IMG/VR virus record: IMGVR_UViG_3300005345_000001
Location: 1-64,000 of that record
DNA: 64,000 nucleotides
Strand: one strand, 5' to 3'
From: a virus
Lineage: Duplodnaviria; Caudoviricetes
Part shown: one piece after another, positions 10,736-47,745 of the stretch
Layout of the letters: each line of letters opens with the position of its first letter
How positions within the stretch are numbered: the stretch's first letter is position 1
Translations under genes and position numbers: made by a program
The notes under the pieces: generated by a model
Seen by the model: only the letters and a program-made list of their open reading frames with translations
Databases searched by the model: none
What the model was told of the DNA's origin: nothing

Positions 10736-13213
10736 GTGTCTGTTCCTATTCAGCGGCTAATTTCCAAGCACAAGCTTGACCCAGACAGCTTAAAGGCAGC
10801 GTTCGATCACAAGTCCTTAGAGAAGCGTCCTCAGGTCAAGAAGCTCGTCGAAGCGATCCGGGACGTTATCCGAGATGGCATTAACCGTAACCGCACCGAC
10901 TATCGCCTCTATAAAGCGATGGATTGGAGTTATGACCAACCTTTCTACCAGGTCTCCTACACCCAGCTGCGCGGGCTCATGTCTAGCCAGCCCGATGACA
11001 ATAAGGTGTTGGAGACCGTTAATTCCTGGGGCTTATCTCATCTGCTCCCGGATATCTTAGATGCGGACGGCAAAGTCTGTTGCGGGGCCAACGGCAGGCC
11101 GCTCAAGGCTGTTAATCTGCCGGTATTTTTCCAGGTGTTTGTGCCTGTGTGCATGGCCTATATCACCATTCGCTGGGCCAAACTATTCAATGACCGAAAC
11201 CTTAATCCGCTCTACAAATATGAGCCGGTTCAATACACCAAAGAGAACCGGTTTCGTTGCGAGGTGTTGACCCAGATCGTGCAGCGGATGGCCACGCAGT
11301 TTGATTATAAGTCAGATCTGAGGCAGACTATCCTGCAAACCCTCCTCTACGGATTCTGCATAAACTTCCCCAGGGAGGCGTGGTTTGTCGAGAAGCAGCT
11401 GGACGAAAGCGGGGATGAACAGATCGTGCGCGAAGGGCTGCGCTTCAACATGCCCCATCCTTCCCGCATCTATTACGATCTCTATCATCGGCTCTCCTCG
11501 CTTAATTCCAACTCCGGCTGTGAATATGCCGGCTACTGGGAGTTGTGCCGCTACAAAGACATCCACGATAACGAGCTCTATTGGAACAAGGACGCCATCG
11601 GCTTTGGCGCCCTGTCCTGGTTTGATATCGGCGTCAGTGACTTCCTGGATCACGTCTTCCCCTGCACCTTAAAATTCCCCAATGTTAACAGTGCCGGCGG
11701 CGGGGTGGGCCCACTGGACCGACAGCATGAGGCGGCCTCAACCTATGGGCAGGGCGATTTCAACGCCGCCACGCTGCTCACCCAACATTTCCAGCGCATT
11801 ATCCCGGCTGACTACGGGCTGGGTGATTACAAATATCCTGTCTGGTTTAGGTTCGTTTACGCCAGCGATACCGCTGTTATTTGGGCTGAGCCGTTGGCCT
11901 TTGATCGGCTCCCCACCTATGCCTACGACGCGGACTTCAACCGTTCCCGTTTCCGATCACTGGCGCTAGAGATCATGCCCTTCCAGGATCATGTCGGGAA
12001 TCTGTTGTCCCAATGGATCCTGGCCGTCAAAGAAAACCTCATCAACCCGGTCTTCTACGATAAGGATAAGATCCCCGCTGAATATTTGAAGCGGCTCCAG
12101 AACCTGGGCCAGAAGATGTATAACGGCCGGCTCTTTATCCCCTATTCCGGCACTGAGACCTTGCGCATGAAGGTCGACCAACGGGAGGCGTTCTACGTGC
12201 CGCCATTCAGCCACCATCAGACAGGCGAAGTGGCTACGCTTATCTCTGGGGTGCTGTCCATGTTGGACCGGGTCATGCAGCTCTCGCCCCAAGAGATTGG
12301 GCAGGCGGCTCAACACGAACAGACCGCTGAAGAAACCCGCGTCATCTCCCAAAACACTTCTACCCGCGTCACCTTTACAGGCTCATTCATCGATGATGGC
12401 GATTACGCCAAGAAGGTCGCCATCTACGACGCTACCATGGCCCATGCCGATGATGAGGTGACAGTAGGCATCAGCTCGTCACTGGCCGCTACCGATGCGG
12501 AGTTTAAGAAGTTGTTGGATTCGGTCGGTTTTACGATCCAGGACGATACCACTTACGATCCGGAAAATCCCGATGCCATGCGTTCGGTTAAAGGCAAGAA
12601 GTCAGCGCTCAAATTGGAGTCATTCGCCTCAACGCGAGATGCCAGCGACCGCATTGATAATCCGGCTATCGCCGACGCGATGAGTAAGATCTTCTTGGCT
12701 GTCGCCAATAATCCTGTGCTCATCCAGGCTATCGGTCCAATGCAGTTAGTCGAGTTACTCAATCAGATCATCACCACGACCGGCTTACCCAAAGAATTCA
12801 AGTTGAAGGGTAAGCAGGTGGATCTAAACGCTGGCCAAGAAGAACAGGCTAGCCAAGTCCAGGGAATGCTCAAAGAGTTCGCCGGCCAGATCCAGCAACT
12901 GGTCGCCTCCAAACAACAGGAGACTCTCCAAATCGCCGGCCAACAAGCCGAGCAGGCTGCCCAACAGGCCGCCGGGCAAGTGGCCCAGGTCATTGGACAA
13001 CAAGTGCAACAGGTGGCCCAACAAGCGGAGGCCGCCGGTCAACAAACCGCCCAGGCGTTGCAAGCGCAACAGGCCAAGATCGAAGAGCTTGGTCAGGCCA
13101 TCGATCAGTTAACCCAAGTCATCGACGCGGCTCAAGCCGGGATGGGAATGTTAGCCCAGCCTGCGCCTCCGCCGATGGTGCCGCCCGTGCCTGCCGGTCC
13201 TCTGATGGTATGA
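10736..13213 (+). CDS. Portal protein (probable)
   Basis: 825 aa at the head of the structural operon; TATE-like QTAEETR motif; long Gln/Ala coiled-coil C-terminus as in P22-type portal barrels. Confidence 0.75.
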   Translation: MSVPIQRLISKHKLDPDSLKAAFDHKSLEKRPQVKKLVEAIRDVIRDGINRNRTDYRLYKAMDWSYDQPFYQVSYTQLRGLMSSQPDDNKVLETVNSWGLSHLLPDILDADGKVCCGANGRPLKAVNLPVFFQVFVPVCMAYITIRWAKLFNDRNLNPLYKYEPVQYTKENRFRCEVLTQIVQRMATQFDYKSDLRQTILQTLLYGFCINFPREAWFVEKQLDESGDEQIVREGLRFNMPHPSRIYYDLYHRLSSLNSNSGCEYAGYWELCRYKDIHDNELYWNKDAIGFGALSWFDIGVSDFLDHVFPCTLKFPNVNSAGGGVGPLDRQHEAASTYGQGDFNAATLLTQHFQRIIPADYGLGDYKYPVWFRFVYASDTAVIWAEPLAFDRLPTYAYDADFNRSRFRSLALEIMPFQDHVGNLLSQWILAVKENLINPVFYDKDKIPAEYLKRLQNLGQKMYNGRLFIPYSGTETLRMKVDQREAFYVPPFSHHQTGEVATLISGVLSMLDRVMQLSPQEIGQAAQHEQTAEETRVISQNTSTRVTFTGSFIDDGDYAKKVAIYDATMAHADDEVTVGISSSLAATDAEFKKLLDSVGFTIQDDTTYDPENPDAMRSVKGKKSALKLESFASTRDASDRIDNPAIADAMSKIFLAVANNPVLIQAIGPMQLVELLNQIITTTGLPKEFKLKGKQVDLNAGQEEQASQVQGMLKEFAGQIQQLVASKQQETLQIAGQQAEQAAQQAAGQVAQVIGQQVQQVAQQAEAAGQQTAQALQAQQAKIEELGQAIDQLTQVIDAAQAGMGMLAQPAPPPMVPPVPAGPLMV

Positions 13214-13216
13214 ACT

Positions 13217-13471
13217 ATGGATACAAATATAGTGACTGCGATCGTGCAACAGAAGTCCACCAGCATCGAAGTAATTACCTTAATCTTAAACGCACTGGGC
13301 CCTGTCTTGGCGGCAATTGCTGCCTTCTTCGCCAGGTCCGCTGTCGCTGGTGTTAAAGAGGTGCACCTAGCCATTAACTCGCGGTTAGATCAATGGCTCC
13401 TACTGGAGCGCAAACAGGGAGTGGAAACGGGTCGGCAACAAGAGCGTGATGATGCAGCTAAGATCAAGTAA
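13217..13471 (+). CDS. Small single-TM membrane protein (holin-like candidate)
   Basis: ITLILNALGPVLAAIAAFFA hydrophobic segment with charged C-terminus. Confidence 0.5.
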   Translation: MDTNIVTAIVQQKSTSIEVITLILNALGPVLAAIAAFFARSAVAGVKEVHLAINSRLDQWLLLERKQGVETGRQQERDDAAKIK

Positions 13472-13774
13472 ATGGCCGAACCGATCGTAGTCACCTCAAT
13501 CCCCTGCGATCATAGCCAGAAGGCCGAGTTGGAGGCCCTCTTCTCCTCTACTGGCTATTCCCTATTAAAGCGGTTATTGGCTTCCCACTGCATCAAAGAA
13601 CAAGTTACAGCGGCCAATAAAGGGTTGTATGAGTCGGGGAGTGAGATAGCATCGAGCCAAGCTAAGCACCACCGCCAACGCGCCGAGTACATCAACGCCC
13701 TGTTAGATGTGCTTGACGATATTGAGGCAAAAGAGGATCAGTGGTTCTTAGTTAGCCTGGAATGTAAGCGCTAA
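13472..13774 (+). CDS. Hypothetical head-module protein
   Basis: 100-aa ORF abutting the previous gene, between portal and scaffold. Confidence 0.65.
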   Translation: MAEPIVVTSIPCDHSQKAELEALFSSTGYSLLKRLLASHCIKEQVTAANKGLYESGSEIASSQAKHHRQRAEYINALLDVLDDIEAKEDQWFLVSLECKR

Positions 13775-13910
13775 AACGTTATGCAAGATGTTAAAGCTGT
13801 TCATCAAAAATTGCCTTCTGCTTTTACAAATAGCCTTGAGTTCAACCTCCAAAATACAAAAAGGGGCAGGACTTTGGGCCCGGCGGAGGCTTTAACTTAA
13901 CACACTGGCC

Positions 13911-15440
13911 ATGCCCGATGATACCCAGGTAGTACCCGCCCAAACTACAGCAGATGCTCCACCTACTGCACCACCAACCGATTTACCGTTACCTACTCCG
14001 CCCCCTACGCCGGGCCCGGAGGATGATCCTAATCATCAGCTGGCGCTCCTAATTGCCAAGCGTAAGGAACGTAAAGCGCCCAAAGAAGAAGAGCCAGGCA
14101 AGGAGCCGCCCGGAGATAACGCCGAAGACAAGGCTAAAAAGCAGGAGAAGCTAGGGGATCTAATCGCTGATGCGCTTAAATTTAAGGGCAAGAAGCCCGA
14201 CGCCAAGAAGGAAGAACCCAAGGTAGAGCCTGAGCCTCCACCGCCCGAGCCGCCCAAAGCTCCACCGCCCGCTCCAAAGCCTGAGCCTACTGTCATCTCC
14301 AAGCGCAAGCCTACCGATCCGGATGAGCACGCTCGCGACATTGGTCAAGCGGCAGCAGCAGCAGCTACTGCTGCCGTGCAAGCGCTTCAGCCATCCTTCC
14401 AGCCACCGCCCAAGCCTGAGCCAGACCCAGGCGAAGCTCTTAAACCATCTGACCGACAGAAGTATGAGGTAGCTAAGTTCCTGGCGGCCTCCAATCCTCA
14501 TTACAAGGATGCCCCCAGGCTCATCTTAGATCAGACCCGGCGGGCCGAATCCTATGCCAGCCGCTGGGAATCGGCTAACCCAGGTAAAGCGTTTGATCCG
14601 GAAGACGAAGAGCATAACGCCTTTTACGACTCTATCGAAGAGCCCTGGAGCCCAATCGAGTTTGATGACGCTGTCGCCCGCATGCGCGAGGCCGCCATCG
14701 AGGAGAAAATCCAGAAGCGCTACGACGCAGAGTTAGCTACCATCAAGGAAGCCAATGCCCGACTTGAATTAACTGGCGAAGTAGACCGCCGCTACTCCCA
14801 GACGGCCGGCCAATTAGCCAAGGCGCTCAATGTCCACGATGTTATTTCCAGCGGGGGCATAGATAAGCTCGAAGAGCAAGACCCCATCACAGCCAAAGTC
14901 CTTATGCAGGTGCTTGGTGGTTTGCAGCCCTTGGTCGAAGCCATCGTCCAGATTGACGATCCTAAGGGCCGGATCAAGGTCGACATGCAAAACCCCGCTC
15001 ACCAACAGTGGGCTGCTGTCGTTCATGAAGGGGAAACTAGATCGATGGGTAAGCGCGATGAGCATGGCCGGCTCTTCGCCCGCCGGGCCGATTACTTGCG
15101 CATGAATCCGGCAGGTCAAGCCAGGCATTGGTTCCTTTCCACTGAACATATCTTGAAAGGAATTGTCGATGAAATCGCTCCGGCCATCACCGAACACGTG
15201 AAGAAAGAACGTGACGAACAGATCAAGATCGCTAAATCCTTGGGTTTTGTTCCGAAAACAGAAAGTCCGGATGCTAAAAATGGCGCTGCTGCTCCGCCCT
15301 CGTCGCCCCCGCCACCACCTGCTAAACCACCATCACCTACGGTAGGTGGTGGAGCTAAGATTGATGCATCCACTGGCGAGCCAAAAACAAAGGGCGCTAA
15401 ATTGACCGACGCGATAGCTGATACCCTCTGGGGACGATAG
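13911..15440 (+). CDS. Capsid scaffolding protein (probable)
   Basis: Pro/Lys/Glu-rich low-complexity ends, helical core, short conserved-looking tail (DAIADTLWGR); directly upstream of the capsid gene. Confidence 0.6.
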   Translation: MPDDTQVVPAQTTADAPPTAPPTDLPLPTPPPTPGPEDDPNHQLALLIAKRKERKAPKEEEPGKEPPGDNAEDKAKKQEKLGDLIADALKFKGKKPDAKKEEPKVEPEPPPPEPPKAPPPAPKPEPTVISKRKPTDPDEHARDIGQAAAAAATAAVQALQPSFQPPPKPEPDPGEALKPSDRQKYEVAKFLAASNPHYKDAPRLILDQTRRAESYASRWESANPGKAFDPEDEEHNAFYDSIEEPWSPIEFDDAVARMREAAIEEKIQKRYDAELATIKEANARLELTGEVDRRYSQTAGQLAKALNVHDVISSGGIDKLEEQDPITAKVLMQVLGGLQPLVEAIVQIDDPKGRIKVDMQNPAHQQWAAVVHEGETRSMGKRDEHGRLFARRADYLRMNPAGQARHWFLSTEHILKGIVDEIAPAITEHVKKERDEQIKIAKSLGFVPKTESPDAKNGAAAPPSSPPPPPAKPPSPTVGGGAKIDASTGEPKTKGAKLTDAIADTLWGR

Positions 15441-15497
15441 CTTATTCAGACGCCTTTAGTTGCTAGGTAATTAAGCCGCAGCTAGGCGCTTTGAATA

Positions 15498-17219
15498 ATG
15501 GCTATCAGCGCTAATATCTTCGAAAAATGTCTGCCGGCTATCGGCAACAACATCGCCGCCTGCGGTGCCGTAACCCTGTGCGACATCATTACCGCAGAGA
15601 GCGATGAGCTAACCAACATCTTCACCGATGGGTCCGGCCATTTCCGCGACATGCGCGCTCTGTTGGCCACCCAGTTTGAAATCAAGGCCTGCGGCGCCCG
15701 CACCAATGGACTCTACGACTTCCTGATGTCCAACAAGCGGATGATGGGCAATAAGAAGATCGTGACCCCGCTGGGCCCTGGCAACTCCGAGATAGCCCCC
15801 TTCATCCTGGCCCACCAACATTCTGTCATCAACGCGGAGTATTGGAGCTTAAAGAATCTGTTCAATAGCGGTGGCAACAACTACACCCTCCATGTTAATT
15901 CCAGGGCTTCCATCCCGCTGACGACCGAGTGGTTCGTGCCGGGCATGAACATCTATGTCAATGCCAGGTCAGCGGCCGGCACTGCCTTGCGCGGCTCATT
16001 CCTGGTCGTGGCATCCCAGGTCAGCACCTTTGGTGGAGCAGCCACCATCATGATCACGGCAACCGGCCAGAACGATACCTTGGGCTGGGTGGCTAAGTCA
16101 GCTTTCACCGGGTTCACCGGCGGCTCGCCTCTCTCGGCGGGTGTGGTGGTTCGCGGATCAGCCAATGTCCAGGACGTGGAGCGCTGGTGCTACAACCGGC
16201 CTGCCCTAAACGATCGTAAGCACGTGCCGTTCTGGTTTGAGACCGATCGTTACACCATGTGCACCGATCAGCTCTATGAGGCCTACTTCAAGCGGCTCCA
16301 ACAGGGCAACGAATACTTTAAGCTCTTCGGCGATGTCGACGCTACCCAGCGCAATAAGCAGTTGGGCGACATCTTCCAGCGGGAATGGATCAACAAATTC
16401 TTCTGGAACAAACGCATCTCCACTAACCAAACCCTCGGCAGCTATCGGTCACTGGCCGAAGTCACGACCTGGAGCAATGCCACCCAGGGCCTTTACCTTC
16501 CAGGAGAAGGTCGCTGCGTCGGTCGCAAAGCTAATGCGGTCGGAGTCTATGAGCAATTGGCAGAATGCGGGCAGGTCTTTGATTTGCAGAATCAGCAGCT
16601 CAACTTGGTCGAGCTGTTCGAAAACTTGATCTACCCAATCTGGCGCGCCCGTGGCGACCAGGGTATCCCCAACGATGTTATCGAGATCTTCACCGATTCA
16701 TTCACTGCCAGCCAGTTCCAGCGCGGTATGATCGAATACTATGACACCCGCTCAGACGGTCTGGCTCGGTTCATGATCGATACCAAGCAGGTTATGAGCG
16801 GCAAGATGGGCCAACTCGGGTTTAACTATGACGAGTATCGGCTCCAATATCCGCAGGTCACTATCCGGATCGTAACCAACAACTTCTTCGACGACTTCGC
16901 TACCGCGATGCAGTTGGAAAATGTAGGTTCCGCCGGCCGGTTCCTCTGGATCTTGGACTTTACCTCCATCTATCCGGGGATCATCACTAGCAACTCCAAG
17001 AAGCATACTACTGGAGACATCGAGAAGTTGGCGGCTATCGACCAGGACTACGCCTGCGTGATGGAGAATCCAACCCAGGAGATTAGCCTTAACTCACTCA
17101 CATGGACCGCCGTCGTAGAGTGCACCGCTACCAGTGCGATTGTTGAGAACTTCGACATTACTCGAATTCCCAAGGGTGACGCTGGCCAGAGCCCATATAC
17201 TGATTTGTATCAAGTCTAG
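15498..17219 (+). CDS. Major capsid protein (probable)
   Basis: 573 aa after the scaffold, strongly biased codon usage, followed by a strong terminator. Confidence 0.7.
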   Translation: MAISANIFEKCLPAIGNNIAACGAVTLCDIITAESDELTNIFTDGSGHFRDMRALLATQFEIKACGARTNGLYDFLMSNKRMMGNKKIVTPLGPGNSEIAPFILAHQHSVINAEYWSLKNLFNSGGNNYTLHVNSRASIPLTTEWFVPGMNIYVNARSAAGTALRGSFLVVASQVSTFGGAATIMITATGQNDTLGWVAKSAFTGFTGGSPLSAGVVVRGSANVQDVERWCYNRPALNDRKHVPFWFETDRYTMCTDQLYEAYFKRLQQGNEYFKLFGDVDATQRNKQLGDIFQREWINKFFWNKRISTNQTLGSYRSLAEVTTWSNATQGLYLPGEGRCVGRKANAVGVYEQLAECGQVFDLQNQQLNLVELFENLIYPIWRARGDQGIPNDVIEIFTDSFTASQFQRGMIEYYDTRSDGLARFMIDTKQVMSGKMGQLGFNYDEYRLQYPQVTIRIVTNNFFDDFATAMQLENVGSAGRFLWILDFTSIYPGIITSNSKKHTTGDIEKLAAIDQDYACVMENPTQEISLNSLTWTAVVECTATSAIVENFDITRIPKGDAGQSPYTDLYQV

Positions 17220-33672: not shown

Positions 33673-34482
33673 ATGGCTAATGGTGCTGGAGATATTGTAG
33701 GCGGTCTTGGCAGTTCGATCAGTTCCCTATTTGGCTCTCGGGCCGCCCCCAAGGCTTATCTCAATCGATACGCCCTCCCCACCGCCAAGCCGCTTGGTAA
33801 ATTTGGAGGGTCACTCCTTGGCGACATTGAGCCACTCTCCCGCGAAGCCGTCAGCGGTTATTTGGCCCAACAGCCCAAGCAACAGGCGTTAGCCGGACAG
33901 CAGGAGAACATCTTAAATACTCTCCTGGCACGCAGACTGAACGCTGACCCAACACAGCTCTTGCGGGATGTGGGCAACACCGCCTTCGGATTCATTGATC
34001 CGAATGTAATTACGCCGCTGGCAAGGTTCGACGTTAACCAGGATATCCTCATGCGACGGGCCCGGGGCCTCAGTCCCGCCGCTAGCGATTCCACAGCGGA
34101 ACGTTTGCGCAACGCCCGCATTGCCAGCGGCAGATACTATGACACCGCCCAACAGGCTTATTCGGCCCTCCCTCGTCTTTATGGGGAGGCGTTCGGCCAA
34201 GGCTTATCCAATGAGGCCGCTGCCGCTGGACTTACTCCACAAATTTCTGCTGCTTATGAAGGGGTGGCTGCTCGGCCCTGGAACGCCATCAATCAACGCA
34301 TCTCTTCGGCCACCGGCGCCAGCGACGCCGCCAGTCGCGCCATCCAAGGCGTACTTGCTGCCACCCAAGGCTACAAGCAACCGCAGAACTGGGCGGATCG
34401 TTTGGGTGCGGCCAGTCAGGGCATCGGCCAGGCGTTGGGCGGAGTAGCTGGTTTGGCCGGAGGCGGTGGTGGCGGATTGTGA
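33673..34482 (+). CDS. DNA ejection / pilot protein
   Basis: Gly/Ala/Ser-rich amphipathic ends (GAGDIVGGLGSSISSLFG; GIGQALGGVAGLAGGGGGGL), Gln/Ala-rich core, no Cys; follows the nozzle. Confidence 0.7.
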   Translation: MANGAGDIVGGLGSSISSLFGSRAAPKAYLNRYALPTAKPLGKFGGSLLGDIEPLSREAVSGYLAQQPKQQALAGQQENILNTLLARRLNADPTQLLRDVGNTAFGFIDPNVITPLARFDVNQDILMRRARGLSPAASDSTAERLRNARIASGRYYDTAQQAYSALPRLYGEAFGQGLSNEAAAAGLTPQISAAYEGVAARPWNAINQRISSATGASDAASRAIQGVLAATQGYKQPQNWADRLGAASQGIGQALGGVAGLAGGGGGGL

Positions 34483-34832
34483 TCCATAGGCACGACAAGT
34501 GCATCGGCATAACGCTCTGGAAATGGGGCCATTTCCAAATCGAATTATGGTGCGTCCCATCTATGGAGACAATCGAGTCACATTGTCATCCATCGATTGA
34601 CTCTACGCTCATCTTCCTGTTTGGAAGAATGTTCGGTCGAATTGGCGAAAGACAGGGCTGGGTGAGCAATGCCGATTGCCTTCGCAGATTCGCTATTCCG
34701 GCCGGGATAGAGCACTCAGCTACAACTGCTAAATTCACTGCCTTCCTTAACATAGAAAGATGGCGCGCTGGCAGCAATGTCACGAGTGCATCGGTTGATT
34801 TTCGGGTTTCCAAGTCTCGTTGCGACGAATGA
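34479..34832 (+). CDS. Cupin-like protein
   Basis: HCHP and IPAGIEH match the two cupin motifs; GTGA overlap with the pilot gene. Confidence 0.55.
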   Translation: MIHRHDKCIGITLWKWGHFQIELWCVPSMETIESHCHPSIDSTLIFLFGRMFGRIGERQGWVSNADCLRRFAIPAGIEHSATTAKFTAFLNIERWRAGSNVTSASVDFRVSKSRCDE

Positions 34833-35304
34833 ATCCAATAGTCCCTTTCGACACGCCGTATATCATGGCAAGCTCTCGATAACTACGCCTGTTCGCTCTT
34901 ATGGCAATCACTTGTTTCCAGGTAAGTTTAGAGTTGGGACAAAGCTCCCCAGTTTTGCCGTTAAAATGTGTCTTCCATCGACCTTTCGAAATTGCATCCC
35001 GGAGATTTGAGCTCTGGTTCCCAGTCCACAGATGATCTGGATTCACGCAGTCACCTCTGTCTCCATCTGGACAATTGTGGTGGACCTGATGTCCTTCTGG
35101 AATTGGCCCCACATTGAGGATGTAGCTTATGCGATGAACCCCCATGGTTCCACGGCCGACACCAATGGCCCAATGTCGGTTGTGCTTCCCGCCATCAAAG
35201 AGCCAACAGCCGTTGGTTTTGGTCACACGCCGCCAGAACTTGGCTGGGATAGTAGTATTAAGCCCTTGAGCAGCGAGGTAGTCGGAAGTAATATTTGGCG
35301 GCAT
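34780..35304 (-). CDS. HNH homing endonuclease
   Basis: FWRRV.K..GCW, VHRISY, VHHNCPDGD..DCVNPDHL..G....N..D. Confidence 0.9.
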   Translation of the reverse strand: MPPNITSDYLAAQGLNTTIPAKFWRRVTKTNGCWLFDGGKHNRHWAIGVGRGTMGVHRISYILNVGPIPEGHQVHHNCPDGDRGDCVNPDHLWTGNQSSNLRDAISKGRWKTHFNGKTGELCPNSKLTWKQVIAIRANRRSYRELAMIYGVSKGTIGFIRRNETWKPENQPMHS

Positions 35305-35395
35305 ATCAAAAGATTCGTTTTTGATTTGTTAGCTCCGGTTCCGCTTCAACGGGCCGGAGCATCCGTTTTAACCTGTCATCCGGAAGGGTCAAGGA

Positions 35396-36649
35396 ATTAA
35401 CACCAAAGTCCACATCCTGGCCAGTTGCCCAAATCCAAAGCTCATCGATTACACAACTCTTGTCTTTAAGACTCTGCGCGTTGGATTTCCCACTGCTGAC
35501 GTCGTGGTGTGGATGAATAAATTGGGACAAGTGGAGGAGTCCAAGGTGTCCCAAATCTGCGTGGACAACGACTACGACGCACAGGTCTGTGACTATGCTC
35601 ACCACGAATGGATCCAGATGCTGGCCACCACCGAGAAGCAACCATTCTGGATATCTGATACAGATATTTTGTATTACGAAAATATCGAGGAGCTGAAGCC
35701 TGATTCTGCTATAGCCGGCTGGCGCATCCCGGAGTGGAAGGACGAATTCACCCAGTGCATCACGCGGGCGCGTATCCATACCTGCCTGATGCACATCAAC
35801 CCGTTGACGCTAGCCAGCGCAATCGCCAGGTATAAGGAGAGCTTCAATCTAATGGATGACATCAATCCATTGCCGAACCTATTTGCTCCGATCTCTGTCC
35901 CATTTGGTAGACTGACCTATTTCTATGACGTCTGCGGGCTGCTCTATAACGCTGTCGGCGGTGAAGCGTTCTCCGATGAGATCAAAGAGAGGTGGTTCCA
36001 CTTTAACTTTGGGTCCATATCAGACCGCGTATTGCCACTGATCAAAGACGGCGATAAGATGGCAGCCGCCAGGGAGATGGTATTGCTAAACCCGCAGCTT
36101 GGACGTGGTGCCTGGAGGTTGCAGGAGGAATACTATGCCAACCGCCAAGTGATTTACGACGGCAAGAAGATAGAGGACACGATGAGCCAGGAGGATATGG
36201 AGCTAGCCAGGAAGTGGAACGTGGAGCTTTGCTGCGGCAATCAGGAGGCGATGCAGTTTTGCGATCTGTATCACCGATACGTGCATGGGATCGACGATCT
36301 CGTAGACGAAATGCAGGACGGTCGACCGACGATGAGCAAGGAACAGATCATAGACTTGTTCTTGCAGGCACTGATCCTCTACAACACGCCGTTCTTCGTT
36401 ACCTATCGAAACCTACTGTTCCCGGCAATTATACAGGTGACCAACATGTATCAGGATTCTGTCTCCTGGGAACGGTCGCCGAAAAGTCATTTACGCAAGA
36501 TAGCCGATGTGCTTCGCACTTGCGGTGGCGAAGTCTATTTCATGGTCGCGCTGATTACCGGAGGACCAGAGCACATGAATAGGATGTCGAAATTGATCAG
36601 GGAACGTGATTTTCTCTCCCAGCACGATCAGGATGGAAACCCTCTATGA
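35396..36649 (+). CDS. Fusion of a GT-A-like domain and a DDxxD isoprenoid-synthase-like domain
   Basis: N-part has DxD in WISDTDILYY; C-part has HGIDDLVDE in a helical domain. The frame is open from 35372; probable ATT start at 35396. Confidence 0.7.
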   Translation: MNTKVHILASCPNPKLIDYTTLVFKTLRVGFPTADVVVWMNKLGQVEESKVSQICVDNDYDAQVCDYAHHEWIQMLATTEKQPFWISDTDILYYENIEELKPDSAIAGWRIPEWKDEFTQCITRARIHTCLMHINPLTLASAIARYKESFNLMDDINPLPNLFAPISVPFGRLTYFYDVCGLLYNAVGGEAFSDEIKERWFHFNFGSISDRVLPLIKDGDKMAAAREMVLLNPQLGRGAWRLQEEYYANRQVIYDGKKIEDTMSQEDMELARKWNVELCCGNQEAMQFCDLYHRYVHGIDDLVDEMQDGRPTMSKEQIIDLFLQALILYNTPFFVTYRNLLFPAIIQVTNMYQDSVSWERSPKSHLRKIADVLRTCGGEVYFMVALITGGPEHMNRMSKLIRERDFLSQHDQDGNPL

Positions 36650-37147
36650 TTTCCAACGCTTAAAGGTTACGATATGTCCAATCATCTGCCGAGATACCCC
36701 AAACACCCTAGCCAGTTGCATCTGTGTGATTCCGCCTTCCCCGTAAACCGTCCTGATATTATCGACGTCACCCTGACTGAGCACTGACCACGGGCATCGC
36801 CCTTTATTGATCATATCCCAGGTGTTCTGTCTGGATGTTCCAAGCCAGAGATGTGATGGGTTGCAGCAGGCGCGATTATCGCACGAATGGCACACACATA
36901 ATCCATCAGGGATTTCTCCATTGTGGATAAGCCAGCTCAAAATGTGAGGCTTCATGGTCTGGAATCCACCGCGTTTAACTATACGACCGTATCCAAATGA
37001 ATCTTTACACCCAGTCCAATTCCAGCAGCCATCGGTCTTTTCTACGTGTTTCCAAAATCTATGTTCGATCGTGGCCGAACAGTGACGCTTAGCCAGAATG
37101 GGATTAGCGTGCATTGGGACAGAGGAAGTGGTAAACTCATGTTGCAT
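36644..37147 (-). CDS. HNH homing endonuclease
   Basis: FWKHVEKTDGCWNWTG, VCHSCDNRACCNPSHLWLGT...N..D, C-terminal HTH. Confidence 0.92.
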   Translation of the reverse strand: MQHEFTTSSVPMHANPILAKRHCSATIEHRFWKHVEKTDGCWNWTGCKDSFGYGRIVKRGGFQTMKPHILSWLIHNGEIPDGLCVCHSCDNRACCNPSHLWLGTSRQNTWDMINKGRCPWSVLSQGDVDNIRTVYGEGGITQMQLARVFGVSRQMIGHIVTFKRWKS

Positions 37148-37275: not shown

Positions 37276-38463
37276 ATGCCAAGTCCATTCGGGCCGATTC
37301 CATATAGGTCACCAGTGGCACCACCCGCCGATCCATATACGGGGTTAGGCTGGCCCATCCCAATGCCAAGACTCATGGCGCCGGAGTCCACTGGATTCCC
37401 GGTCCGACTGGGATGGTCTGAGGCGCCACCTCCAGCACCACCCGCGCCATCAGGATATATCGGTAACACATACCTCCCTGATTATAATGATTTGTATCCT
37501 ACGCCGATCCGACAGCCGCATTCAGCTGACTACTATGGGCCTGGCCCGGAAGTTTCTATTCCACCAGAGCCTGCGCTACCACCAGTTGCACCACCGCCTA
37601 ATGCTGGAAACATAGGAAACACCTACCTACCTAACTACGACGATGTCATGAACGAAGGCGTGAGAAGCGGTATCGCGACGCCACCTTTAGCTGCCCCCCC
37701 TTGGCTGGATCGAATCGCCGCTATGATGAGTGGAGCCGGTCACGGTCAGCAACTGTCTCCTCCTCCCTCTCGCCGTTACAGCTTGGGCATCCCAAAGACT
37801 GACTTCATCTATACCAATCCTGTCGCAGCGCAGCAGGCAGCCGCCAGTCTATCGGCACGACTTGGTTACGAGCAGCAGCAGGATCAAGGCTACCGGCAGT
37901 ACCTGATTGCACAGGAGCAGGCCAGGCAGGCAAACGCCAACCAGGCACAACGGCTGGCTGAGAACGAAAAGGATCGGGCCCTGCAACGGGAAGGCTTTGC
38001 CAGTTCCGAACGTAGCGCGGCCAATCGTGCTTACGGCTACAGCGACTTCGACCGCAGACAGGCGGCTAGAGAGAAGGAGTTGGCTGAACAGAAGCTCATC
38101 GCTGACCGGGCTAACTACAGAAGTGCGGTAGCTCTGGCTAATGCGCTTAATAGTTCGACAGTTCCACCGATCCAAAAGAATAAGACGGCCCTGGCCAATC
38201 CAGGCCTTGTGAACCTAGATCCATCTGGGAGATATGTTCCATCTATGCCCAATCCAGATCTAGCCGCTCCCGGGGTGACGACAATCGGCCAACTGCAAAG
38301 CGGCATTGCCGCTCGGCAACAGCAGATCCGTGACGCTGCTACTCCTCCGCCAGCATATCCCCAGCTTAATCCAGCTGCGCCTACCCCTGCACCTGCGCCG
38401 TCTGTCCCGTGGTATCAACGATGGTTTGGACATCCAACCGCACCACTCCAGGCTGCCCCATAA
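37276..38463 (+). CDS. Pro-rich ejection / internal virion protein
   Basis: Between the pilot and the giant protein; Pro-rich ends, Gln/Ala coiled-coil core, no Cys; internal duplicate IGNTYLPxYxD. Confidence 0.6.
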   Translation: MPSPFGPIPYRSPVAPPADPYTGLGWPIPMPRLMAPESTGFPVRLGWSEAPPPAPPAPSGYIGNTYLPDYNDLYPTPIRQPHSADYYGPGPEVSIPPEPALPPVAPPPNAGNIGNTYLPNYDDVMNEGVRSGIATPPLAAPPWLDRIAAMMSGAGHGQQLSPPPSRRYSLGIPKTDFIYTNPVAAQQAAASLSARLGYEQQQDQGYRQYLIAQEQARQANANQAQRLAENEKDRALQREGFASSERSAANRAYGYSDFDRRQAAREKELAEQKLIADRANYRSAVALANALNSSTVPPIQKNKTALANPGLVNLDPSGRYVPSMPNPDLAAPGVTTIGQLQSGIAARQQQIRDAATPPPAYPQLNPAAPTPAPAPSVPWYQRWFGHPTAPLQAAP

Positions 38464-47169: not shown

Positions 47170-47745
47170 TTAGTTGGATCGGGAAAAGTCGCCGTATAGT
47201 TCCTTGGCTTTCGCGGCATAGGCAGCGTGGGCTTCTTCCGGCGTGGCAAATGTCCCGAGAGGTATCTGCTTGCCTCCGTATCCAATCTGGGCGCGGAAGC
47301 GGTTCCGCTTCATTGATACGCCTTTCGGCAATTGGGCATGCTTGCGATGCACGTGGGCTTTCTGGTTGGCCGCATTCTGGACCCGCGTGGCAAGGCGGAG
47401 ATTAGTCCATACGTTGTTCAGTCGGTTACAGTCCTTATGATCTACCTCAAACCCGGCCGGGATATCCACGCCCATTAAAACAAACGCCAGCCGATGGGCT
47501 CTAAACATTGTAGTCTTTCCGTTTATCACCAACCTGATCTCCAGACATCCGGGAAATCCGCGCTTGCTTGCCGCTTTATGTCCGGCCGGTTTCCCTGCGA
47601 ATCTATACGTGAAGGTCCGCCATGCACGTTCATTTATGAAATGCGAACGCGGCCTTTCCTTCCAGCAAAACTGTCCCGTTTGAGGATCATAGCTGAGGCA
47701 TTGGTTTAGATATTGCGCTGGCGGAAGTGGAGTGGTCTTCTTCAT
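47170..47745 (-). CDS. HNH endonuclease with AP2 domain
   Basis: YDPQTGQF.WK, AHRLAF, VDHKDCNRLNNVWTNLRLAT..QN, FRAQI...LGTF.T.EEAH.AY. Confidence 0.92.
   Translation of the reverse strand: MKKTTPLPPAQYLNQCLSYDPQTGQFCWKERPRSHFINERAWRTFTYRFAGKPAGHKAASKRGFPGCLEIRLVINGKTTMFRAHRLAFVLMGVDIPAGFEVDHKDCNRLNNVWTNLRLATRVQNAANQKAHVHRKHAQLPKGVSMKRNRFRAQIGYGGKQIPLGTFATPEEAHAAYAAKAKELYGDFSRSN

Follow-up and report, generated by a model that had tools for sequence, protein, structure and literature searches.

What would a phage do with an enzyme that joins a glycosyltransferase-like domain to an isoprenoid-synthase-like one, encoded among the genes of its virion? The question is raised by a 64,000-nucleotide stretch of DNA from a soil phage (Duplodnaviria; Caudoviricetes; IMG/VR record IMGVR_UViG_3300005345_000001, positions 1 to 64,000), referred to here as the window, in which positions 35396–36649 of the plus strand hold a single open frame of 417 codons plus stop whose translation is a two-domain enzyme. 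This phage and hundreds of uncultured relatives encode an uncharacterised enzyme of this kind among their virion genes. The N-terminal domain (N-domain) is predicted to adopt a glycosyltransferase A (GT-A) fold, and the C-terminal domain (C-domain) a compact helical bundle that resembles isoprenoid synthases at half their size. Together with a small cupin, they form a combinatorial cassette at a fixed slot in the virion operon, which we tentatively read as a means of tailoring some protein encoded in that operon. The parts of the enzyme gene are as follows.

35396–36649, plus strand: two-domain enzyme gene; open frame with ~65 full-length homologues at 45–75% identity and 98–100% coverage
35396–36145, plus strand: N-domain (residues 1–250), predicted GT-A fold, GT8-like, from the AlphaFold2 model and structural matches
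35657–35665, plus strand: DxD motif (D88-T89-D90), invariant in alignments A1, A2 and A5
36191–36646, plus strand: C-domain (residues 266–417), compact eight-helix domain of phrog_21390 with predicted isoprenoid-synthase-like topology
36284–36307, plus strand: H297-x2-D300-D301-x2-D304 motif closing helix 2 at its C-terminal end; no variation in A1 and ≥90% conservation in A4
36443–36472, plus strand: second polar cluster, closing the long fifth helix at its C-terminal end: N350...D354-S355...W358-E359
36605–36628, plus strand: third polar cluster, closing the last helix and invariant in A1: R404-D405...Q409-H410-D

The N-domain resembles GT8-type glycosyltransferases

The initial annotation described an N-domain with an SDTD motif and a C-domain with a DDxxD motif in an all-helical region. 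Both motifs lie in the one 417-codon frame: SDTD falls within FWISDTDILYY as S87-D88-T89-D90, AMQFCDLYHRYVHGIDDLVDE corresponds to residues 285–305, and AlphaFold2 models the C-half as entirely helical. The N-half (residues 1–262) is modelled from a 106-sequence alignment as an α/β domain with a predicted local distance difference test (pLDDT) score of 96.3. Foldseek returned 284 matches in the PDB at E ≤1e-3, headed by the catalytic domain of UGGT (E 4e-7), a Porphyromonas glycosyltransferase and GlyE, and followed by glycogenin and sugar nucleotidyltransferases. The D88-T89-D90 triplet is invariant in 26 full-length sequences (A1), 106 N-domain sequences (A2) and a further alignment of 20 (A5); among the 106 N-domain relatives, G30, F31, D178 and H202 are invariant alongside D88 and D90. 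No glycosyltransferase family of Pfam or NCBIfam (e.g. PF01501) matches the domain at E ≤0.1, and its identity to the GT8-type retaining GT-A enzymes compared here is 7–12% (LgtC, 1g9r; glycogenin, 3u2t; GlyE, 5gvv; the C-domain of WbbM, 6u4b; and the GT24 enzyme UGGT, 6fsn and 7zll). In GT8 enzymes a C-terminal histidine within H-x2-G-x2-KPW acts as third metal ligand; the candidate counterpart in the phage domain is the invariant H202, which lies inside HFNFG with no KPW after it. The domain also differs in being fused to, or lying beside, the C-domain and a cupin in a virion operon. On the predicted structure, the assignment of the N-domain to a GT-A fold (Rossmann-like, α/β/α) nearest the retaining GT8-type glycosyltransferases is well supported.

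Protein glycosyltransferases are frequent among the nearest structures of the N-domain (UGGT, GlyE, glycogenin, Skp1 GalT, XXYLT1 and ColGalT1), and relatives of the domain are present in metagenome-assembled genomes (MAGs) of many phyla. At two such loci, L103 and L108, the homologue is immediately followed by between one and four short peptide genes and then by a radical-SAM/SPASM enzyme, and the peptides share a leader (..YSKEELEE..RPHG) and a Cys/Gly-rich core.

L108, 10795–10947: short precursor-peptide gene
L103, 10800–10988: short precursor-peptide gene
L103, 11115–11264: short precursor-peptide gene
L103, 11337–11561: short precursor-peptide gene
L103, 11620–11817: short precursor-peptide gene

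These loci look like an undescribed cluster for a ribosomally synthesised and post-translationally modified peptide (RiPP) with a GT8-like glycosyltransferase, and the homologues beside Cys/Gly-rich peptides point to an undescribed family of RiPP glycosyltransferases. In two Microcoleus genomes (L105, L107), the homologue adjoins C39-peptidase ABC exporters. Since cellular homologues lie in such RiPP-type settings, they suggest that the N-domain family may glycosylate peptides. The N-domain of the phage could plausibly act on a peptide or protein, because many of its near structures are protein glycosyltransferases and its cellular homologues adjoin precursor peptides or C39 exporters.

The C-domain has a predicted isoprenoid-synthase-like architecture

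The C-half (residues 250–417) was modelled by AlphaFold2 from 84 sequences as an all-helical domain of eight helices with a pLDDT of 95.2. By DSSP, the DDxxD motif ends a helix that spans residues 34–55 of the C-domain model. Conservation of the aspartates, a point on which the initial annotation hung, is nearly complete: H297, D300, D301 and D304 show no change in A1, and each is kept in at least 90% of A4. In the second cluster, A1 has no variation at S355, W358 or E359, and D105, S106, W109 and E110 (C-domain numbering) are all but invariant in A3 or A4; further conserved polar residues are R367, D371 and R374.

Foldseek found no PDB match to the C-half at E ≤1e-3, and nearly all of its top ~50 matches are trans-prenyltransferases, at E 0.1–0.6, probability up to 0.99 and template-modelling (TM) scores of 0.5–0.6. 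Two VIA-align runs, one of them over 48,161 chains, likewise gave isoprenoid (trans-prenyl) diphosphate synthases as the best matches. A search with a protein language model placed a G6PD cluster at 0.81, then DUF2600, PF00348 and PF07307, all weak at 0.79. MazG/dUTPase-type all-α nucleoside triphosphate pyrophosphatases, HD domains and heme-oxygenase-like di-iron folds are absent from the top 50 structural matches, an absence that does not amount to exclusion.

The setting of the DDxxD motif agrees with this resemblance. It closes a long helix at the C-terminal end, and a G-R-P-T loop comes next, much as the first Asp-rich motif and RRG-x-P-T are arranged in IspA. In the model, the conserved polar residues sit where three parallel helices have their C-termini and where the antiparallel helix between them has its N-terminus; because helix ends in an up-down bundle point the same way, they should line a single mouth of the bundle, a layout that would be that of the Mg2+-diphosphate site of isoprenoid synthases. 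Judged by alignment end-points, DDxxD would fall about on what we take to be the first Asp-rich motif of the T. maritima octaprenyl diphosphate synthase and of yeast geranylgeranyl diphosphate (GGPP) synthase, and the third polar cluster about where E. coli IspB has its second.

The trans-isoprenyl diphosphate synthases used for comparison were PF00348, yeast GGPP synthase (2e8v), octaprenyl diphosphate synthases (3tc1, 5zlf), the small subunit of heptaprenyl diphosphate synthase (9kp1_A, 5h9d) and MoeN5 (5b00). These enzymes have ~300 residues and at least 10 helices, whereas the phage domain has ~150 residues and eight helices; it shares their first Asp-rich motif, DDx2-4D, but neither the second DDxxD nor profile similarity. 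The initial description of a terpenoid-synthase-like domain agrees with the best structural matches of Foldseek and VIA-align; the PF00348 profile, the size and the second motif set limits to it. An isoprenoid-synthase-like architecture without membership in the family is moderately supported by the model.

Sequence profiles from Pfam, NCBIfam and the PDB gave nothing for the whole protein or for either domain. The C-domain does match phrog_21390, a family without annotation, over residues 266–399 (hidden Markov model (HMM) match, E 5.5e-12, profile positions 4–133 of 153). A stand-alone 155-residue protein from locus L013 matches the same family (E 7.3e-15), and the GT-A fusion lies outside the 153-position profile.

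A genuine fusion in a mostly uncultured family

Whether the two halves truly belong together was a concern of the initial annotation, which allowed for a missed stop or an assembly artefact. Approximately 65 independent full-length homologues of 410–420 residues exist, together with split and reversed forms, and the fusion is evidently genuine. A HMMER search of a library clustered at 50% identity recovered 774 cluster representatives at E ≤1e-3, most of them stand-alone N-domains of ~250 residues; the others are stand-alone C-domains (~150 residues) and full-length fusions. One protein, P0207, is a reversed C-N fusion, and two, P0209 and P0233, are tandem C-C proteins of ~305 residues, a size nearing that of a full isoprenoid synthase. 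The IMG/VR loci include N-C fusions, adjacent overlapping N and C genes, C genes followed by N genes, a large clade with the C-domain only, and loci with the N-domain only. The anticipated stand-alone relatives of ~150 residues beside large internal genes were thus borne out, both by phrog_21390 and by these loci. Four loci carry an insert of ~240 residues between the two domains, in proteins of 596–743 residues:

L091, 9671–11902: N-insert-C protein
L096, 9986–11920: N-insert-C protein
L106, 2250–4223: N-insert-C protein
L111, 9998–11788: N-insert-C protein

The insert matches the lipocalin-like family PF17186 above the cut-off in L106 (33 bits) and below it in L091. Because N-C, C-N, adjacent N/C and C/N, and N-lipocalin-C arrangements all occur, the two domains are in all probability functionally linked.

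Nearly all members of the family come from uncultured phages, and none of Pfam, NCBIfam, PHROGs and the PDB offers an annotation for it. Neither the protein nor its region of the window has a match among 50,697 phage records (tblastn, megablast), so that no cultured phage there carries the fused protein, and the N-only proteins of L085 and L075 likewise match no cultured phage. The C-only protein of L013 finds one, Achromobacter phage CF418P1, in which the gene is annotated as hypothetical. C-domain patterns found no cellular relatives among 185,579 species genomes; among genome assemblies the C-domain appears, outside viral contigs, only fused to an N-domain on two MAG contigs. An iterated HMM search of the genes that follow N-only genes gave no new divergent C-domains.

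A three-part cassette upstream of large virion genes

In ~95 viral loci, an N gene, a C gene or both lie immediately upstream of a gene for a 300–830-residue protein with a low-complexity N-terminus, and a giant gene of 1000–2900 residues comes next in most loci where the contig extends that far. CF418P1 has the same gene order, with a giant gene in the same slot. The enzyme gene of the window was initially placed between a pilot gene and other ejection genes; what the loci show is a fixed slot directly upstream of the genes for the 395- and 2901-residue proteins, which are putative ejection proteins.

34479–34832, plus strand: small cupin of 117 residues, the usual upstream partner, with invariant H35, H37 and H79 (alignment A6)
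37276–38463, plus strand: Pro-rich 395-residue protein in the conserved downstream slot, by synteny across loci, with homologues in L001 and L002
38464–47169, plus strand: giant 2901-residue protein from the open reading frame (ORF) list; most loci whose contig reaches that far have a giant gene here

The third member of the arrangement is the cupin. A tblastn search found it in 46 places among the loci gathered by that stage; it is adjacent to the C-domain gene in most C-bearing loci and is the most frequent partner of the C-domain, ahead of GT-A. Its matches are weak, in Pfam to Cupin_2 in 6 of 15 members and to PCO_ADO in 3 of 15, and by PDB profile to quercetinase and Cupin_2 proteins (E 1e-5 to 1e-3). 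With small metal cupins of these kinds (Cupin_2; quercetinase, 1y3t and 2h0v; the thiol dioxygenases PCO and ADO), it shares two cupin motifs and three histidines. The three-histidine cupin, the GT-A domain and the C-domain therefore form a combinatorial three-part cassette that is fused, split, reordered or partial from locus to locus, and which is also found on many shorter viral contigs, including complete-looking ones of ~40 kb.

Both domain folds are of known kinds. No counterpart of the half-size domain with one DDxxD, of its association with a cupin and a GT8-like domain, or of the fixed slot before large internal virion genes was found in Pfam, PHROG, NCBIfam, the PDB or the literature searched; no linkage of cupin and C-domain in a phage virion operon appeared in Pfam, PHROG, NCBIfam or that literature, and a full-text search for phage isoprenoid-synthase or terpene-synthase enzymes returned nothing relevant. 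To our knowledge, enzymes at a fixed slot within a virion or ejection gene block are unusual. Little is understood of the chemistry of internal virion proteins while the genome is delivered, and such a placement suggests that these proteins may be covalently tailored.

A candidate tailoring kit and its alternatives

In the reading we prefer, the cassette would serve to tailor a protein made from the operon in which it lies, and one of the downstream internal or ejection-type proteins is the likeliest candidate. The GT-A domain would transfer a sugar from a nucleoside diphosphate (NDP)-sugar; the C-domain would bind or ionise a diphosphate-bearing donor, likeliest a prenyl diphosphate, through Mg2+ held by DDxxD; and the cupin would oxidise or otherwise prepare the acceptor. 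We favour it because the cassette is translationally coupled (ATGA) in a virion operon, because relatives of the N-domain occur in peptide-modification clusters, and because ComQ offers a precedent for a one-motif enzyme of isoprenoid type that acts on a peptide. ComQ, the tryptophan prenyltransferase of ComX in Bacillus, has an isoprenoid-synthase fold, retains the first Asp-rich motif alone, and attaches a prenyl group to the ComX peptide without chain elongation (PMC5331326); it serves here as the functional model. The likeness has limits, as ComQ is full-size and recognisably homologous to farnesyl diphosphate and GGPP synthases, whereas the phage C-domain is neither, and no ComX-like precursor was identified beside the phage C-domain.

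Several results weigh against this proposal. Many phages have the C-domain alone or the N-domain alone, so that two activities would not be obligatorily coupled, and the termini of the downstream proteins, which vary greatly and are putative ejection proteins by size, position and composition, showed no conserved acceptor motif at either end. The homologues in RiPP contexts are only ~29–31% identical to the phage N-domain. As for the C-domain, its sequence profile does not match PF00348-type sequences: hhalign gave a probability of 0.4% against 15 polyprenyl synthases taken from loci L116–L128, and against E. coli IspA, IspB and the 15-sequence profile nothing significant (0.4–2.4%). It has half the ~300 residues of prenyl synthases, and in place of a second DDxxD it has N-x3-D-S-x3-E and R-D-x3-Q-H-D, which are off the spacing of the canonical second Asp-rich, NSE or DTE motifs. 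That the cassette tailors a virion or ejection protein encoded alongside it is held as a possibility somewhat short of probable. Its most specific form, in which the cassette of uncultured podovirus-like phages prenylates and glycosylates internal or ejection proteins and thereby makes them membrane-active during genome delivery, seems quite unlikely as a whole. If it were true, bacteriophages would gain what is, as far as we know, their first described system for protein prenylation, and the C-domain would define a minimal, half-size class I prenyl-transfer fold. Should the C-domain handle prenyl diphosphates, it would be a minimal isoprenoid-synthase fold of ~150 residues with one DDxxD; given the natural tandem proteins P0209 and P0233, such a fold would bear on the origin of the full-size one by duplication.

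The same fold and motif would also suit a C-domain that binds a polyprenyl phosphate or diphosphate, for instance host undecaprenyl phosphate or diphosphate or a glycan-linked intermediate, to which the GT-A domain adds a sugar, altering host envelope glycan synthesis late in infection. The lipocalin-like insert of L106, sub-threshold in L091 and matched by a similar N-insert-C layout in L096 and L111, would fit, as lipocalin-like domains are typical of binders of small hydrophobic ligands. LgtC and WbbM, enzymes of lipopolysaccharide synthesis, are among the GT8-like structural neighbours, and a Caulobacteraceae N-domain homologue (L099) lies two genes from a polyprenyl synthase, an adjacency that may be chance. 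The two-domain protein, however, has no transmembrane segment or signal, and a route through envelope carriers leaves the fixed slot within the virion operon unexplained. It is further disfavoured because the phage lacks genes of the polyprenyl-carrier pathway: neither a polyprenyl synthase nor an initiating phosphoglycosyl transferase nor a Wzx flippase is encoded in the complete phage genome, and PF00348, positive in all 14 control genomes, finds nothing in it. The proposed link between the enzyme and the glycan cluster of this phage likewise received no direct support. We regard a lipid-carrier substrate as rather unlikely.

A similarly low standing is given to the view that the resemblance to isoprenoid synthases reflects a common helical arrangement, and that the C-domain is a metal-dependent enzyme acting on another phosphate or diphosphate compound, such as a nucleotide, an NDP-sugar or pyrophosphate, or a non-isoprenoid metalloenzyme working with the cupin. 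The silent PF00348 profile and the half-size domain speak for it, as does the fact that a metal cupin, not GT-A, is the most frequent partner. Against it, Foldseek, VIA-align and the language-model search all rank isoprenoid-synthase families at or near the top of their named hits; these matches span 145–155 of 168 residues, compared with 70–76 for unrelated helical ones, and the placement of DDxxD and the G-R-P-T loop is IspA-like. The position within a block of presumed internal virion genes would also accommodate a protein packaged in the capsid and ejected, whose GT-A domain, in the manner of bacterial GT-A toxins and effectors, glycosylates a host protein with host uridine diphosphate (UDP)-sugar while the C-domain serves packaging, membrane association or regulation; the effector glycosyltransferases LtpM, a Legionella glucosyltransferase and YeGT are among the GT-A neighbours. 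Presence in virions is without support, though, the C-domain carries enzyme-like invariant residues, the cupin partner is unexplained and, in this phage, the only start is an ATT, suggesting low expression, all of which makes a packaged effector improbable. Lastly, the constant position among structural genes could reflect catalytically dead components of the internal core, descended from enzymes. The DxD, the histidine, the DDxxD, the Arg/Asp/His clusters and the three cupin histidines are, however, invariant across relatives at 25–45% identity, and because such invariance typifies active sites rather than scaffolds, we consider a purely structural role very improbable.

The start of the enzyme gene

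The coordinate from which the initial annotation began the gene, 35396, opens an uninterrupted frame but carries no ATG, GTG or TTG, and thus implies an ATT start. An in-frame TAA lies upstream at 35369–35371; the first canonical start in the frame is GTG 35504, with none across the first 36 codons. The public gene call (P0002, 378 residues) starts at ATG 35513, omits the strand and helix that open the GT-A fold, and is too short. Homologues start M-(x)1-3-V-H-I-L (P0048, for example, reads M-T-T-K-V-H-I-L) where the window has ATT-AAC-ACC-AAA-GTC-CAC (I-N-T-K-V-H), so that the homologue methionine aligns with the ATT. Codons 5–36, all of which precede the first canonical start, differ from those of the relative L001 by 13 synonymous and 3 non-synonymous changes. 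Because full-length homologues cover the frame, and codons 5–36 differ mostly synonymously and cover the opening strand and helix of the predicted fold, ATT 35396 is most likely the start.

35382–35388, plus strand: Shine-Dalgarno-like GGAAGGG, by direct reading of the sequence, 7 nucleotides upstream of ATT 35396
34780–35304, minus strand: HNH endonuclease gene between the cupin and enzyme genes (PF13392, 6.9e-7)

In L001, which has no HNH insert here, the stop of the upstream cupin gene (110 residues) overlaps the enzyme ATG as ATGA. By comparison, insertion of the HNH gene at the cupin/enzyme junction of the window has removed the ATG of the enzyme and altered the C-terminus of the cupin; with the junction split, the enzyme gene now most likely starts at ATT. 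An ORF of 122 residues at 35032–35400 (plus strand) is probably spurious, being antisense to the HNH gene and without homologues; translational coupling through an 'ATTAA' overlap of its stop with the ATT was first suspected and then rejected on the same grounds. A terminator-like hairpin at 35343–35360 was not above shuffled expectation.

Other HNH genes and the downstream proteins

Three minus-strand HNH genes lie inside the plus-strand virion operon, the remaining two being:

36644–37147, minus strand: second HNH endonuclease gene, between the enzyme and 395-residue genes (PF13392, 3.4e-12; phrog_1872, 2e-30); L001 has none at the corresponding place
47170–47745, minus strand: third HNH endonuclease gene (PF13392), after the giant gene

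The downstream neighbour genes have no family annotation in Pfam or PHROG, and the 2901-residue protein has no match in either. Neither it nor the 395-residue protein shows homology at the BLAST level to its positional counterpart in L013. The 395-residue protein contains a repeated G-N-(I/T)-G-N-T-Y-L-P-(D/N)-Y motif, around residues 59–75 and 109–122. In L013, a giant protein of 1601 residues is encoded at 11876–16681, downstream of the C-only gene, and its end matches phrog_2579 ('ParB C-terminal domain', E 3e-35).

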